From Pseudomonadota bacterium (lineage in GTDB: Bacteria; Desulfobacterota; Desulfobacteria; Desulfobacterales; RPRI01): a stretch of 64,000 nucleotides of DNA. Within the stretch, counting starts at the first letter, position 1; the number at the start of each line of letters is the position of its first letter. The notes under the pieces are model-generated. The model was given only the letters and a program-made list of their open reading frames with translations, made no database searches and was not told the origin of the DNA. Where the stretch lies: contig JBDRRF010000031.1 of NCBI GenBank assembly GCA_043825875.1, positions 1 to 64,000 on the forward strand. The letters are read 5' to 3'. The position numbers and the translations under genes are program-made. Shown here in pieces: positions 1 through 6,805 of this stretch.

Positions 1-123
1 TACTATGCGATGTCCCTGGTAAAAAATGCTGCCCATAAGAACAGTTGGATTTTCACCCGGCTGACCGCCTATTGTTACATCACCTATCGTATAGGTTTTT
101 TGTTCCTGAGTAAATGTTAACAC
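1..123 (-). CDS. mtrH: N-terminal part of an MtrH/MtgA-family methyltransferase (methylcorrinoid:tetrahydrofolate/pterin methyltransferase), runs off the left edge
   Basis: Not in the ORF track. Manual translation from GTG at 123 gives [41 protein letters not shown], matching the [12 protein letters not shown]-terminal signature of MtrH. RBS AGGAG lies upstream on the minus strand. Confidence 0.85.
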
Positions 124-209
124 TTCTTTATCACTCCTATAATAAAAGATAACTACTCATGTTGTTAGGTTCGCAGTTGGTTATCCTGAATAGTTACAAT
201 AAAAATTGC

Positions 210-659
210 CTATGCCATTGGAACAATATCTTCCGCTTGTTCCTCTAACCATTCCTTTGTTTCATCCTCATCGCCTTTCATCAGCTCTTGAAGCTGTGCA
301 TCGGTATCGCCTGTTTTCTCTATCTCCACAAGCCAGCCTTCTCCATAAGGATCTTTCATTATCAACGCCGGATCTCCAGCGGATATTGAAGGATTTACGA
401 CAGTAACCGTACCTGAAACAGGGGCGATAATTTCTCTAACGGCTTTACTTGTCTCAACTGTTCCGATCGAATCGCCTTTATTTATTAAAGCTCCTGCATC
501 ACATGTCATTTTAATGGTTACCAGTTTCTTTGCCGATCTTACGATTATATCGCTTAAACCGACGCGTATCTTTCCAGCCTCTTCCTTTACCCAAAGCAAC
601 TCCGTAGAATATAAAACATCTTCCGGAAATACGAGTTCATAACCCCATAGGTTTTCCAT
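210..659 (-). CDS. GcvH-like lipoyl-carrier protein
   Basis: VETSKAVREIIAPVSG (lipoyl-lysine motif) and DPYGEGWL, typical of glycine cleavage H proteins; no gcvT/gcvP in the window. Confidence 0.85.
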   Translation of the reverse strand: MENLWGYELVFPEDVLYSTELLWVKEEAGKIRVGLSDIIVRSAKKLVTIKMTCDAGALINKGDSIGTVETSKAVREIIAPVSGTVTVVNPSISAGDPALIMKDPYGEGWLVEIEKTGDTDAQLQELMKGDEDETKEWLEEQAEDIVPMA

Positions 660-696
660 ATATCAATACCTCTTCATATATACTTTTCAAAAAAAC

Positions 697-927
697 TGAA
701 TATCGAACAAGGAATTTCGAATTGTGAAGTATTTGGCGGATTTTAAACAACCCCCTTTATCCCCCTTTTTTAAGGGGGAATTTTAACGTCTTACTTCATC
801 ATTTGGTGCTGGTTACGAACCTAAGATATTCCTCATTTAATAAGGTTAAACCAGCTCAAATATTCCCCCTTAGAAAAGGGGGCAAGGGGGTTGTTTACTT
901 ATATCTTATATCTTCCTTCGATATTCA
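697..927. repeat. Nested palindromic REP-like repeats
   Basis: Outer IR TGAATATCGAA (697-707) / TTCGATATTCA (917-927). Inner inverted pair of CCCCCTT..AAGGGGG hairpin units at 745-781 and 862-896. Confidence 0.7.
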
Positions 928-944
928 TTTGTTCAATTTAATTA

Positions 945-1616
945 CTACCTGTTCTTCAGCATGGGTACTTCACCTGCTTTTAACATCTTAACTTTTTTAA
1001 TGGCTTCAATAGCGCTGATCCCTGCAGCATCAGCTCCGTATTCTTCGGCCTGTTCATCCGTAAACGCCCAGCCTCCAACAATGTAAATCAAATTATCCCG
1101 CACACCTATATCAACAAGTGCTTTATTTACATTTCCGCAATAAGCTTTCACAGGAGACAGAATAGCTGAAGCGCCTACTACCGTTGCGTTATGTTTTTTT
1201 GCGGCTTCCGCAAAGTCCTTTCCAGATTTGTTCTCACCGATATCAACTACATTATATCCATTAGCGGTAAATACAGCTCCCACTATGCGCTTTCCGATAA
1301 AATGCACATCTCCTTCAACCGTTCCGATTACCATCGTTTCACCCATGGGCTTTCCGCCTGACTCAATAAGAGGACGCAGCTTGTCGGTAGCATCATTTAA
1401 CATGTCCCCTGCAATAATCAGATCGCTCATGAACCGCTTGCCTGTATCGAACCCCTCGCCGATAATGTTTAAACCTGGGTTCATACCTTCCATGATCATA
1501 TCAAGAGGGCCTACATCTATCTTAAGACCCTCATCAATCAACTCAAACAATAAGTCGTCATCAAGATCAATGACTGCTTCTTTCATCTTTTCCAATAGTT
1601 CTGCTTTATTTGACAT
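945..1616 (-). CDS. Corrinoid (cobalamin-binding) protein, MtaC/MttC family
   Basis: B12-binding cap domain plus GTVEGDVHFIGK (DxHxxG); start moved to MSNKAELL at 1616. Confidence 0.9.
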   Translation of the reverse strand: MSNKAELLEKMKEAVIDLDDDLLFELIDEGLKIDVGPLDMIMEGMNPGLNIIGEGFDTGKRFMSDLIIAGDMLNDATDKLRPLIESGGKPMGETMVIGTVEGDVHFIGKRIVGAVFTANGYNVVDIGENKSGKDFAEAAKKHNATVVGASAILSPVKAYCGNVNKALVDIGVRDNLIYIVGGWAFTDEQAEEYGADAAGISAIEAIKKVKMLKAGEVPMLKNR

Positions 1617-1644
1617 AGTACTCACCTTTCCTTTGTGATTATTC

Positions 1645-4527: not shown

Positions 4528-4605
4528 GGCTGATTTCCTCATCGGGTACATTTATATTAAATATATGAACTCTTAAAACTTGCCGGAATCTGGCCTGGAA
4601 ATAAC

Positions 4606-4815
4606 TTATAATTTGCTCAGATCATCAATTATTGCCTGATATGTCTCAGCACTTATACCGGCTTGAGGCAAACTTGCTATCAGTTCCAATGACATGGAAT
4701 ATCCCATTTTAAGCATTGGACTGTCCGAGCATCCCGGAATATGTTTCTCCATTACTGCTTTACTTTCATCGTTTTCCATTACTTCCTTCAATGTTGATTC
4801 TCCTGAAAACCCCAT
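4606..4815 (-). CDS. Small hypothetical protein (69 aa)
   Basis: Strong RBS GGAGG, co-oriented inside the operon. Confidence 0.65.
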   Translation of the reverse strand: MGFSGESTLKEVMENDESKAVMEKHIPGCSDSPMLKMGYSMSLELIASLPQAGISAETYQAIIDDLSKL

Positions 4816-4829
4816 GTTAACCCTCCTTG

Positions 4830-5066
4830 TTATTTCTTTTTTTTAAGACTCCTGCTTAGCTTAAAGCCTTTCCAAAGCATGACGGGCATGTACTTTACTA
4901 TATCCCAGGTGAGCAGATCGAATACGCTCCACAACTCCTCGGGTTTCACAAAGGCCGTCATTGGCATGCCACCCATCGCCATACCCCTTACAACAAGTCG
5001 CTCATCCTGACGCTTCATTGTTTTTACCTGCATTATTGTTCCGCCGTTTCCATCTACCAGCTTCAT
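4830..5066 (-). CDS. Small hypothetical protein (78 aa)
   Basis: Start reassigned to MKLVDGNG at 5066 (GAAGGG upstream), removing the overlap with the upstream gene. Confidence 0.6.
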   Translation of the reverse strand: MKLVDGNGGTIMQVKTMKRQDERLVVRGMAMGGMPMTAFVKPEELWSVFDLLTWDIVKYMPVMLWKGFKLSRSLKKKK

Positions 5067-5098
5067 AATTGCTTTCCCTTCCGATATTATTTTTATAC

Positions 5099-6709
5099 TT
5101 ACTTTTGTGATACAGCATGTTCGATGGCAGTATAACCGGAAGTAGTCGACATACTGCAACCACCGAGAAGACCAAAGCCCATCGGCATTCTACTTTGTCC
5201 TATACTTCCACCGGCAGTGAAAAATGCGGCGTATAACCCTGGAATAGGCTTCGTATCCATATCCAATACTTGCATGTGCTGATTAGTCCTTAGACCGGTT
5301 CCGACCGGCCCCATGCTGCCGCCGGCTTTAAGCCCATAGAAAGGAGCGTGCTTTATCGGTATCAGGAACCGGGGAGGTGTATCAAATTCCGGATCTTCAC
5401 CTGCATCACAATAACTATTCCATTTGTCTATGGCTGCCTTGAACAAAACCTTATCTAAGCCCAATTTATCAGCTAGCTCTTCCAATGTATTAGCAACTCT
5501 TATTGCTCCCAAGTCGATTGATTCTTTTACCGCTAATCGCCAGTCTTTAGGGGCATTCATCTCATTTCTGGTAATTATTTCGTTTGCCGGCACATCCTGT
5601 GTGAGAGGGCGTTTACAAGACAACCCTAATGGGACATCGTCCTGAATCTTCCAGATATTGTCTTCGTACTTGTTATCAAAAATTACATAGGCTCTTCCCC
5701 CGGGTTGTGACGCCATCGCAGGCGGTCTTAACATGTATTGGCCTAAGTTGTTGTCCATCATCATAAATCTTTCGCACGCTTTGTTTAAGTGCAGCCAAGG
5801 CGCTCTGGACAACTGGACATCTCCGGAGTATAAAAATCTAAACCATGGGCCGCCTTTTTCCATGAGGTCTATTCCCCCCTCAAAGCAGGTGCACGAGTCA
5901 AATCCTGCCACATCGGCTCCTGCTCCAAGCCCCATCCTGAAACATTCGCCGGTATTGCACGGCAAAGACATTGATACACTACCTACGCCTTTATAAACTG
6001 AGGGAGCGTATTGCTTAAGAAGGCTTCGATTGTGCTGCATGCCGCCGGCCGCCATAAGTACGGCTTTATTTGCTTTTACGAAAATGGTGTTTCCTTCCGA
6101 ATCTGTGGCTTTTAATCCAACAATTCTGCCATTATCTTTCACCAATGTGTCAACTTGAGTATTAATTTGAAACTTGACCCCCTTGTCCTTGCACTTTTCA
6201 ACAAGAAAGTTAGTAAGGTCCGTTATAGCGATATAACATAATTTCTCGTGGCCACCTTTGGAGGTGACTGCGGGATATCCTGCTCTTTCATTCTCCCATT
6301 CAAAACCCTGATCTTCTATCCAATCAACGACTTCACCACTTTTTTGTATCATATTGCGAAACAAGTGGATGTTGCCTGTGTAACCTGTTTCAAACAGGCT
6401 GCCCATGGCAATTTCATTTACATCCCATTCTATTCCTTCTTTTTTCTGTATTCTGCTGTTGTAAGCGTAAAAGGCACCGGCGTATTGTGTTGTCCCTCCG
6501 GTAAATTTCAATTTCTCCAAAAGAATCACGGAGCATCCTTCCGTAGCAGCTTTCAGTGCGCCGGCAAGGCCTCCTCCTCCTGATCCGACCACTACTATAT
6601 CGGCCTCATGATCCCATTTTTCCGGTGGGTCCACCGGCAGGATCGGCTCCGCATCTTCCGGTTTTTCGAGTGGTTTTTCTCCTACTCTCCAATCATAATC
6701 TTTGTTCAT
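5099..6709 (-). CDS. FAD-binding oxidoreductase, fumarate reductase/flavocytochrome c/3-ketosteroid dehydrogenase superfamily
   Basis: DIVVVGSGGGGL, LEK..GGTT, KAVLMAAGG, GLRTN..MQVLD...PIPGLYAA. Confidence 0.85.
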   Translation of the reverse strand: MNKDYDWRVGEKPLEKPEDAEPILPVDPPEKWDHEADIVVVGSGGGGLAGALKAATEGCSVILLEKLKFTGGTTQYAGAFYAYNSRIQKKEGIEWDVNEIAMGSLFETGYTGNIHLFRNMIQKSGEVVDWIEDQGFEWENERAGYPAVTSKGGHEKLCYIAITDLTNFLVEKCKDKGVKFQINTQVDTLVKDNGRIVGLKATDSEGNTIFVKANKAVLMAAGGMQHNRSLLKQYAPSVYKGVGSVSMSLPCNTGECFRMGLGAGADVAGFDSCTCFEGGIDLMEKGGPWFRFLYSGDVQLSRAPWLHLNKACERFMMMDNNLGQYMLRPPAMASQPGGRAYVIFDNKYEDNIWKIQDDVPLGLSCKRPLTQDVPANEIITRNEMNAPKDWRLAVKESIDLGAIRVANTLEELADKLGLDKVLFKAAIDKWNSYCDAGEDPEFDTPPRFLIPIKHAPFYGLKAGGSMGPVGTGLRTNQHMQVLDMDTKPIPGLYAAFFTAGGSIGQSRMPMGFGLLGGCSMSTTSGYTAIEHAVSQK

Positions 6710-6786
6710 TTTTGCCTCCTTTATTTTGAATTTATAATTTATTTGTATCCATATTCATTTTGAATCTGAGCAGTTATAAGTATCAT

Positions 6787-6805
6787 TGCTTAAATCGTGC
6801 CAAAA
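6787..6805 (-). promoter_or_regulatory. sigma54 (-24/-12) promoter for the 6709->1 operon
   Basis: Minus strand TTTTGGCACGATTTAAGCA with correct GG-N10-GC spacing; divergent from a sigma54 activator. Confidence 0.85.

Follow-up and report, generated by a model that had tools for sequence, protein, structure and literature searches.

Four-component corrinoid O-demethylases, such as those of Acetobacterium dehalogenans and Desulfitobacterium hafniense and also the Mto system of Methermicoccus and Archaeoglobus, combine a first methyltransferase (MT I), a corrinoid protein, a second methyltransferase (MT II), and an activase. The H-protein, a carrier with a lipoyl lysine, is best known from glycine cleavage, in which its partners are the T and P proteins and Lpd (the L-protein). 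In sHdr-LbpA sulfur oxidation, the non-classical redox enzymes are served by a GcvH-like lipoyl carrier that has maturation genes of its own. Here, we describe an operon that contains genes of both kinds, located at one end of a 64-kb stretch of DNA from a bacterium of the Desulfobacterales. This stretch, referred to as the window, corresponds to the initial 64 kb of contig C31 in genome G000 (4.77 Mb in 118 contigs, rated 99.8% complete); G denotes genomes, C contigs of a genome (of G000 where no prefix is given), and L loci on public contigs.

In the portions of three reports that deal with the Wood–Ljungdahl gene clusters of acetogens, gcvH and lpdA stand unexplained beside acsE and acsV, and are also placed with acsE and metF (PMC4600107; PMC8760232; PMC13564433). 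Apart from these acetogen cases, open-access papers and bioRxiv preprints yielded no case in which an H-protein is described as part of a corrinoid methyltransferase operon, and the paper on the mlp gene cluster mentions neither lipoate nor GcvH (PMC10418091). The operon in the window is the front part of what we take to be a sigma54-controlled catabolic island, the core of which is very probably an O-demethylase-type, four-component corrinoid methyl-transfer system. The new part is a lipoyl carrier with its own maturation and recycling enzymes inside a corrinoid demethylase-type unit. As a whole, the best explanation, an O-demethylase-type system equipped with a dedicated lipoyl redox module, has in our estimate a probability of roughly 40%.

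The methyltransferase core

An earlier note on this DNA, made from the letters alone, had described a co-directional gene run at the window end (1 to ~6800), and every gene of it is there, on the minus strand, with intergenic gaps of −14 to 86 nt apart from a single gap of 285 nt. The UroD, DxHxxG corrinoid protein, and MtrH families that had led the note to propose a corrinoid methyl-transfer operon are likewise confirmed, the family assignments coming from Pfam and NCBIfam profiles. A UroD-fold methyltransferase of 411 aa, the putative MT I (2880..1645; PF01208, 38.9 bits), precedes a corrinoid protein (1658..945; PF02607, B12-binding_2, and PF02310, B12-binding) that may start at a Met at 1616. 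The DxHxxG motif of the latter takes the form DVHFIG (residues 117–122, window 1310..1293), and PDB entry 7xcn matches it at E 3e-34. Beyond the 285-nt gap lies the gene for the GcvH-like lipoyl carrier of 149 aa (659..210), hereafter the H-like protein, followed after 86 nt by an MtrH-family gene that is truncated, window position 1 coinciding with the contig end. Its first 41 codons remain (123..1, start GTG at 123..121) and match PF02007 at profile positions 1–36.

All four components of the O-demethylases are thus encoded here too, the activase outside the window (see below): an MT II that matches 6sj8, a DxHxxG corrinoid protein, an MT I with the UroD/MtaA fold, and a RACo/AcsV-type activase. 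The differences are that MT I comes from a separate, uncharacterized clade, that the operon includes a lipoyl carrier, a ligase, LipA, and Lpd, and that predicted sigma54 control and a variable set of flavoenzymes accompany it.

No PDB entry matches the UroD-fold protein by sequence. The top fold match of its AlphaFold2 model (pLDDT 94.6) is MtaA (4ay8; Foldseek E 4e-14, TM 0.69/0.82). Its clade comprises 49 clusters at E ≤ 1e-20 among 5.8 billion clustered proteins, all annotated as 'hypothetical' or 'UroD family', with no characterized protein among them. These clusters come from the same kinds of metagenome-assembled genome (MAG) as the matches of the H-like protein, and in two cases the matches of both proteins lie on equally long contigs (2807 and 14274 nt).

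Both the resemblance to MtaA, a methylcobalamin:coenzyme M methyltransferase, and the sharing of contigs by the two rare clades would fit a flow of methyl groups in reverse, from methyl-THF (THF, tetrahydrofolate) through MtrH, the corrinoid protein, and an MtaA-like UroD protein to a dihydrolipoyl thiol of the H-like protein, as a soluble analog of the methanogen methyl-coenzyme M route. In MtaA and MtbA, a His-x-Cys...Cys zinc motif activates the thiol. An alignment of 35 members of the UroD clade contains neither an invariant His nor a His-x-Cys...Cys site, with the equivalence of positions taken from the sequence alignment. C40 and C260 are the only invariant or near-invariant Cys residues, C202 is a majority residue only, and the region of the sought zinc site aligns to non-Cys residues in canonical paralogs; on this alignment, the clade lacks the feature that marks MtaA/MtbA-type thiol methyltransferases. 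In addition, it is hard to see what an S-methyl thioether on lipoate would be used for next, a methyl carrier would have no need of Lpd, and the regulation and neighbors of the operon look catabolic. The absence of the zinc site from the UroD clade, together with the ordinary character of MtrH described next, also removes the backing from the thiol methyl carrier that the earlier note had considered. Reverse flow is accordingly a very improbable account, and we rank a thiol methyl acceptor behind both a folate-side role and a reductant of the flavoenzymes. We infer instead that the UroD-fold protein is a substrate:corrinoid methyltransferase.

For MtrH, a full ortholog is available in locus L004 (3020–3919; PF02007, 253 bits). 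It matches the methylcorrinoid:THF methyltransferase of D. hafniense (6sj8) at E 1.4e-102, and at 1e-124 in a profile search, with an alignment that runs end to end and includes the same GYPGGCAP stretch. The protein scores 399 bits against the MtgA model, below the cut-off of 550, and passes an MtrH-family subfamily model. The alignment with 6sj8 shows no extra domain, no clade-specific Cys, and no distinguishing feature, so that, as far as sequence can tell, MtrH is an ordinary methylcorrinoid:THF methyltransferase (MT II). In the direction of methyl flow that we favor, the UroD-fold MT I would transfer a methyl group from the substrate to Co(I) of the corrinoid protein, the MtrH-family MT II would pass it from there to THF, and the RACo/AcsV-type, ATP-dependent activase would re-reduce Co(II) centers. 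Elsewhere in the window (34565–36118), a methylene-THF reductase is fused to DUF5981, preceded by a NIR_SIR/PCP_red/Fer4 protein (33762–34556); this fusion protein, encoded ~28 kb away, is a possible outlet for the methyl-THF of the operon.

A rare clade of H-like lipoyl proteins

The H-like protein passes the Pfam GCV_H model (PF01597, 84.6 bits) but falls below both NCBI gcvH equivalog cut-offs, and H-proteins of the PDB match it at E 2e-30. The lipoyl lysine, Lys72 (codon 446..444), lies in ETSKAV and is invariant in 29 of 29 aligned sequences, which also display an N-terminal motif and a C-terminal extension peculiar to the clade. Among the 5.8 billion clustered proteins, 71 matches were found at E ≤ 1e-10; they split into 9 clusters at 74–92% identity and 33 at 48–57%, three of the latter named from Dehalococcoidia or Chloroflexota MAGs, and then fall to ≤47%. 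When 74 H-proteins were placed in a quick maximum-likelihood tree, the 45 rows that represent the clade came to lie behind one branch (SH-aLRT 100), and the length of that branch, 1.18, is the informative part, the clustering itself being partly built in by the choice of these rows by similarity rank. GCV_H proteins in general are common (at least 134 of 151 genomes of the class). Members of this clade occur in 4 of 17 genomes of the genus, and none was detected at E ≤ 1e-28 among 400 genomes sampled from the rest of the phylum. On these comparisons, the clade of the H-like protein is both discrete and rare. The only longer proteins with an H-like domain were GCV_H+DGC fusions at 38–40% identity; a fusion to MtrH, RACo, or the corrinoid protein was not found in this search, which is weak evidence.

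The H-protein fold, the lipoyl lysine, and the presence of an L-protein-type Lpd in the same operon are shared with glycine cleavage. Unlike that system, G000 has no T and P proteins, and the H-like protein, below the gcvH cut-offs, forms its own clade with terminal additions. Searches of G000 gave zero matches to GCV_T, GDC-P, and 2-oxoacid_dh (E2), while control genomes were positive in 10–11 of 14 cases (GCV_T 11, GDC-P 10). Because GcvT, GcvP, and E2 are absent from G000, the H-like protein does not serve glycine cleavage; gcvT and gcvP, which by the earlier note would have refuted its proposal had they followed immediately beyond the window, are found nowhere in this genome rated 99.8% complete.

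Compared with sHdr-LbpA systems, the partners here are corrinoid methyltransferases, and classical LipA is encoded instead of LipS-type radical-SAM proteins. No gene for an Hdr/CCG domain is present among the open reading frames (ORFs) scanned in L004, C81/C3, and G007:C195. G000 has further H-like proteins on C82 and C8. The one on C82, an H-protein of 139 aa that passes the gcvH models, belongs to a different lipoyl-carrier cassette (locus L108, 1609–12346), akin to sHdr-LbpA-like cassettes. Its gene lies between two pairs of FAD_binding_4 and CCG-domain genes; genes for an LplA-DUF116 fusion, for a geranylgeranyl-reductase-like flavoprotein, and for a radical-SAM/BATS protein come next.

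Continuation beyond the contig end

The contig breaks inside MtrH because this gene is repeated in G000. Contig C28 begins with the same 5′ end: an out-of-frame translation of window 6–122 is 100% identical to that of C28 6–122, and a tblastn search with the MtrH of L004 aligns 41 residues at 85% identity (123..1) on C31 and C28 alike. C28 carries second copies of the FAD_binding_2 protein at 80% identity, of a small ORF at 78%, of the corrinoid protein at 92%, and of the H-like protein at 91%, and lacks the UroD gene as well as the CrtI-like gene. The sole MtrH 3′ end of G000 is on C81 (2–298); beyond it come an LplA-like ligase, LipA, another UroD-clade methyltransferase (62% identical), and the N-terminus of Lpd at the contig end. 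C3 in turn starts inside RACo (7145–8539; RACo_middle and RACo_C_ter, the N-terminus lost at the contig end) and continues with DUF2284, MoxR-type AAA, VWA, Old Yellow Enzyme (OYE), CrtI-like, and SnoaL genes.

The joining of C31, C81, and C3 is not guesswork, because two other loci hold the same order in one piece. L004, from a Desulfonema limicola MAG, encodes contiguously UroD, corrinoid protein, H-like protein (74%), MtrH, LplA-like ligase, LipA, Lpd, RACo, a small ORF, and FAD_binding_2. G007:C195 runs without interruption from a second version of the H-like gene through MtrH, LplA-like ligase, LipA, a second UroD gene, Lpd, RACo, DUF2284, AAA_5, a 306-aa ORF, OYE, SnoaL, and Fer4 to AOR. 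When the proteins are compared one by one, contig G003:C47 is 92–99% identical to the window from OYE through MtrH (its MtrH 88% identical to that of L004). An activator and a lipoate ligase, which the earlier note had recommended looking for nearby, therefore do follow downstream in the form of a RACo/AcsV-type activase and an LplA-like ligase, together with LipA and Lpd. The RACo of L004 is complete with Fer2 and scores 467 bits against the AcsV model, below the cut-off of 800; that of G007:C195 (5770–7569) is 79% identical. LipA, at 393.6 bits (cut-off 203), is of the canonical type. In L004, Lpd occupies two overlapping ORFs (6268–7762) with TIGR01350 scores of 290.6 and 241.2 bits, the sum of which exceeds the cut-off of 408.8; the split is probably an assembly frameshift, because the ortholog in G007:C195 (4362–5756, 464 aa) is intact. 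A reading of the cluster as arsenic or metalloid methylation was dropped, as it had rested only on NCBIfam matches of the DUF2284 protein to a fusion model of ArsM and DUF2284, in which the DUF2284 portion alone was matched.

Linkage and co-inheritance of the H-like gene

We examined 12 loci on public contigs that encode an H-like protein of at least 50% identity (L004, L022–L031, and L033). MtrH is directly 3′ of the H-like gene in 10 of the 11 loci that retain downstream DNA (L028 has none), and UroD and/or corrinoid genes are 5′ of it in 8 of 12, in line with the placement beside methyltransferase genes that the earlier note had reported for the window. The exception, L027, has two unassigned ORFs and an aldehyde dehydrogenase downstream. 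Two small ORFs that flank the H-like gene in this locus (291–638 and 1392–1814) look SCP2-like by eye and have no family match. In L033, MtrH is followed by a Cys-rich ORF of 206 aa (1475–2095), read by eye as DUF2284-like; the DUF2284 family likewise follows RACo in G000. The adjacency to MtrH is retained at 50–57% identity even where no ligase follows, as in L033. A different H-protein lineage (41%) is found in L054, where divergent MttB and corrinoid genes are succeeded by MtrH, GcvH, and LplA, with no flavoenzyme in 16 kb.

Within the 17 genomes of the genus, high-identity versions of the H-like protein, MtrH (at least 88%), and RACo (at least 71%, others ≤47%) are confined to the same four, G000, G003, G007, and G008. 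The LplA-like ligase has an ortholog in these four as well (on C81 in G000), at 69–72% and, in the query genome G008, at 100%, and none was found in two other genomes tested, G001 and G013.

The ligase and LipA genes that directly follow, and the other H-like proteins on C82 and C8, raise the question of whether the H-like protein, the ligase, and LipA form a lipoate-assembly relay for other lipoyl proteins, with an accidental place in this operon. Such a relay is known from Bacillus. G000, however, has no E2, GcvT, or GcvP to be served, and the H-protein of C82 has its own ligase and radical-SAM genes. Neither the persistence of the H-like/MtrH pair without a ligase at 50–57% identity nor the co-inheritance of the module as a unit in 4 of 17 genomes is expected from an accidental placement, and we regard this explanation as very unlikely.

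The same adjacency (10 of 11 loci), which recurs in reversed order and with another H-protein lineage in L054, could also mean that the H-like protein acts directly with MtrH in the C1-folate reactions, or that it protects the Co(I)/MT II complex as a thiol guard. It could, for example, provide a redox link between methyl-THF/methylene-THF conversion and NAD+ via Lpd, as perhaps in acetogens, where the portions of reports mentioned above place gcvH and lpdA beside acsE and metF (PMC4600107; PMC8760232; PMC13564433). Against such a role, MtrH is an ordinary MT II, for which the alignment with 6sj8 shows neither an extra domain nor a clade-specific Cys, the operon lacks MetF and MetV, with the nearest methylene-THF reductase gene 28 kb off, and reduction of lipoate by methyl-THF would be uphill on textbook potentials. 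A GcvH-dependent methylene-THF reductase is, moreover, judged 'highly unlikely' by the authors of PMC8760232 in the part of their paper that concerns it. On balance, a function on the folate side appears improbable.

A possible electron route to the activase

The module that accompanies the methyltransferases suggests a source of electrons for the activase. Since Lpd is present, the lipoyl group can be expected to cycle between disulfide and dithiol, and of the two roles that the earlier note had imagined for the carrier, methyl or electron transfer, Lpd favors the second. The LplA-like ligase/octanoyltransferase and LipA would make the lipoyl cofactor on the H-like carrier, electrons would pass from NADH via Lpd to the lipoyl-H-like protein, and the dihydrolipoyl arm would deliver them, perhaps through the Cys-rich DUF2284 protein, to the [2Fe-2S] cluster of the activase, by which Co(I) would be restored. 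We favor the order NADH, Lpd, H-like protein, RACo because reactivation of Co(II) is the only obligatory redox event of the system and in view of the published potentials. In the parts of the two sources that give these values, the [2Fe-2S] cluster that the activating enzyme carries is placed at −330 mV, with the donor given only as 'e.g., ferredoxin or flavodoxin' (PMC6739815), and the lipoate couple is quoted at −325 mV (PMC8760232). The proposal that the dedicated lipoyl module passes NADH electrons via Lpd and the H-like protein to the activase is tentative, somewhat less probable than the composite explanation to which it belongs.

Several considerations weigh against this electron route. 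A dithiol gives two electrons, while a [2Fe-2S] cluster takes one; to our knowledge, the known links from thiols to Fe-S clusters require special catalysts, and none was identified in this operon. The faithful neighbor of the H-like gene is MtrH, not RACo, which adjoins the H-like gene solely in loci of the Desulfonema type. L054 shows no RACo in its 16 kb, and L025 is without LplA, LipA, Lpd, and RACo over the 7 kb beyond MtrH. Duplication of the H-like gene goes with that of the corrinoid and MtrH genes, one set per substrate module, while Lpd and RACo are fewer, a pattern that would suit a stoichiometric partner of the methyl-transfer core no less than a shared reductant. The sharing of contigs by the rare H-like and UroD clades is a hint of a link with this one MT I and not with activases in general. 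Such points leave some probability to other roles of the H-like protein: directly with MT II or the folates, as reductant of the flavoenzymes, or, least likely, as a thiol methyl acceptor. The 285-nt gap, filled with repetitive extragenic palindromic (REP)-like sequence, splits the predicted operon between the corrinoid and H-like genes. Finally, the loci compared are not all independent, several being near-identical to G000/G003 and possibly from the same samples.

The acetogen clusters are a close parallel to this arrangement of genes: an H-protein and Lpd occur without P and T proteins among genes for a methyl-THF:corrinoid methyltransferase and an activase. The likeness is one of gene content, not of protein alignment, and host and pathway differ, as does the corrinoid protein (a corrinoid iron–sulfur protein there, a small MtaC-type protein here), while a ligase and LipA are added here. 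By analogy, the acetogen puzzle and this operon may reflect the same biology. In its general form, that protein-bound dihydrolipoate, regenerated by a dedicated Lpd, is the physiological electron source of RACo/AcsV-type activases, the idea is more doubtful than its application to this operon.

Flavoenzymes and the nature of the substrate

Four genes precede the UroD gene in the operon. The first encodes a FAD_binding_2 flavoprotein of 536 aa (6709..5099, minus strand; PF00890, 150.9 bits), which resembles soluble fumarate reductases, ketosteroid dehydrogenases (KstD), and urocanate reductase (PDB 1d4d, 4at0, and 6t85 at about E 1e-26); the top NCBIfam match is VprA, a vinylphenol reductase, at 193.6 bits against a cut-off of 600. 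Two small conserved ORFs come next on the same strand. One, listed as 109 aa from a TTG at 5159 and ending at 4830, likely starts at a Met at 5066 (~78 aa, 5066..4830), because its paralogs have 77–80 aa, and it recurs beside FAD_binding_2/CrtI-like genes. The other, of 69 aa (4815..4606), has orthologs in L024 (88%), L004 (81%), and C10 (77%), each beside flavoenzyme genes. Neither has a Pfam or NCBIfam match, and in ESM Atlas they fall into clusters annotated only as 'hypothetical protein'. The fourth gene encodes a flavoprotein of 541 aa from the amine-oxidase-like CrtI/phytoene-desaturase family (4551..2926, minus strand; PF01593), with phytoene desaturase closest (4dgk, E 2e-14) and scores of 280 bits for CrtO (cut-off 1000) and 127 bits for TIGR02734 crtI_fam (below cut-off). 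A neighboring Fe-S flavoenzyme that joins OYE and Pyr_redox_2 domains (8761..10719, minus strand; PF00724, 246.7 bits) has its best match of known structure in the 2-naphthoyl-CoA reductase 6qkg (E 7.5e-107).

The set of flavoenzymes differs from copy to copy: the C28 copy has no CrtI-like gene, and L026 (4.6 kb) and L054 (16 kb) have no FAD_binding_2, CrtI-like, or OYE gene. The flavoenzymes are outside the conserved core, and redox activation of the substrate by them, as envisaged in the earlier note, is for this reason without backing. Could they instead be clients of the lipoyl carrier, with the dihydrolipoyl H-like protein, reduced by Lpd and NADH, donating electrons for C=C reduction of the substrate? 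They have no other redox partner encoded beside them, the FAD_binding_2 protein has no cytochrome or FMN-binding donor domain, and flavoenzyme genes accompany every copy of the Desulfonema type (the window, C28, L004, L024, L025, L110, and L117). The H-like gene, on the other hand, adjoins MtrH and never a flavoenzyme gene, L026 and L054 do without such enzymes altogether, and the OYE-type enzyme has an NAD(P)H module of its own in Pyr_redox_2. We consider this role of the H-like protein improbable, to much the same degree as the folate-side role, and retain the activase as the preferred recipient of its electrons.

Most likely, the FAD_binding_2, CrtI-like, and OYE enzymes tailor the carbon skeleton of the substrate by C=C reduction or desaturation, apart from methyl transfer. 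What that substrate might be is a matter of guesswork: KstD-like, BaiCD-like, SnoaL, and DUF1329/DUF1302 features would suit a steroid- or terpenoid-type compound, and the VprA-like and naphthoyl-CoA-reductase-like enzymes would suit a methoxy-aromatic one. A set of DUF1302, DUF1329/LolA-like, BNR, and MMPL/RND genes is present at window 39979–46995, and DUF1329 genes also occur beside methyltransferase modules in L024, L025, and C2. Neighbors of the DUF1329 type hint at uptake of a hydrophobic substrate.

Predicted sigma54 control and surrounding features

Upstream of the first gene, a sigma54-type −24/−12 element, TGGCACGATTTAAGCA (6802..6787, minus strand), has GG and GC at the correct spacing, but AA replaces the consensus TT. 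Divergent from it, a sigma54 enhancer-binding protein (EBP) of 552 aa is encoded (6954..8612, plus strand; PF00158, 237 bits, with AAA_lid_14 and HTH_8), the N-terminal ~190 residues of which have no family match. An identical element precedes the OYE gene (10864..10849, minus strand), next to a second EBP gene (11023..12684, plus strand), the product of which is 74% identical to the first. Related elements stand at equivalent sites, one 5′ of the paralogous operon that C28 carries and one 5′ of the L005 ortholog, so that the features of a sigma54-dependent operon, −24 GG/−12 GC spacing and a divergent EBP with PF00158, are present and the element is repeated at three further equivalent sites. 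The motif by itself is not above chance (with a stricter consensus and one mismatch, 3 matches elsewhere against 3.44 expected). The statement in the earlier note that the operon is sigma54-driven thus holds as far as the recurrence of the element and the divergent EBP are concerned, and fails for the motif on its own. Element and EBP together suggest that the gene cluster is sigma54-associated, and the OYE gene, with its own element and the second EBP, is probably a second sigma54 unit belonging to that regulon. Substrate-specific modules would be switched on by two or more sigma54 activators; G000 encodes well over a dozen full-length EBP paralogs. A scan for sigma70 promoters and terminators gave nothing above shuffled sequences.

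The 285-nt gap between the corrinoid and H-like genes contains REP-like nested palindromes (746..895). They are G/C-rich, of the form AACAACCCCC...CCCCCTT..AAGGGGG...GGGGGTTGTT, and are conserved among seven aligned loci; G000 has this hairpin at ~28 places. An Rfam scan of 1..7000 gave no real match, the lone miRNA match (E 0.49) being due to chance. We abandoned the idea of a riboswitch for this dispersed palindrome with its ~28 genomic copies and no Rfam family; the element could stabilize mRNA or act as a partial terminator.

At the far end of the window (59770–63992) are defense genes: SoFic (PADLOC, 379 bits), GajB (591 bits), and GajA (364 bits), cut at the window end so that its C-terminal part remains. 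GajA and GajB constitute a Gabija system.

Implications

Corrinoid methyltransferases drive methyl turnover in anoxic sediments and guts. The rare UroD-clade methyltransferase described here is common to Desulfonema-like sulfate reducers and Chloroflexota MAGs, and its substrate is worth finding. With methyltransferases, activase, H-like carrier, ligase, LipA, and Lpd packed together in a host that has no classical lipoate enzyme, the operon offers a testable candidate for a missing link. If protein-bound dihydrolipoate does supply RACo/AcsV-type activases with electrons, the pair of H-protein and L-protein would have a new job, one that would explain the occurrence of gcvH and lpdA without gcvT and gcvP in the Wood–Ljungdahl clusters of acetogens, a published puzzle.

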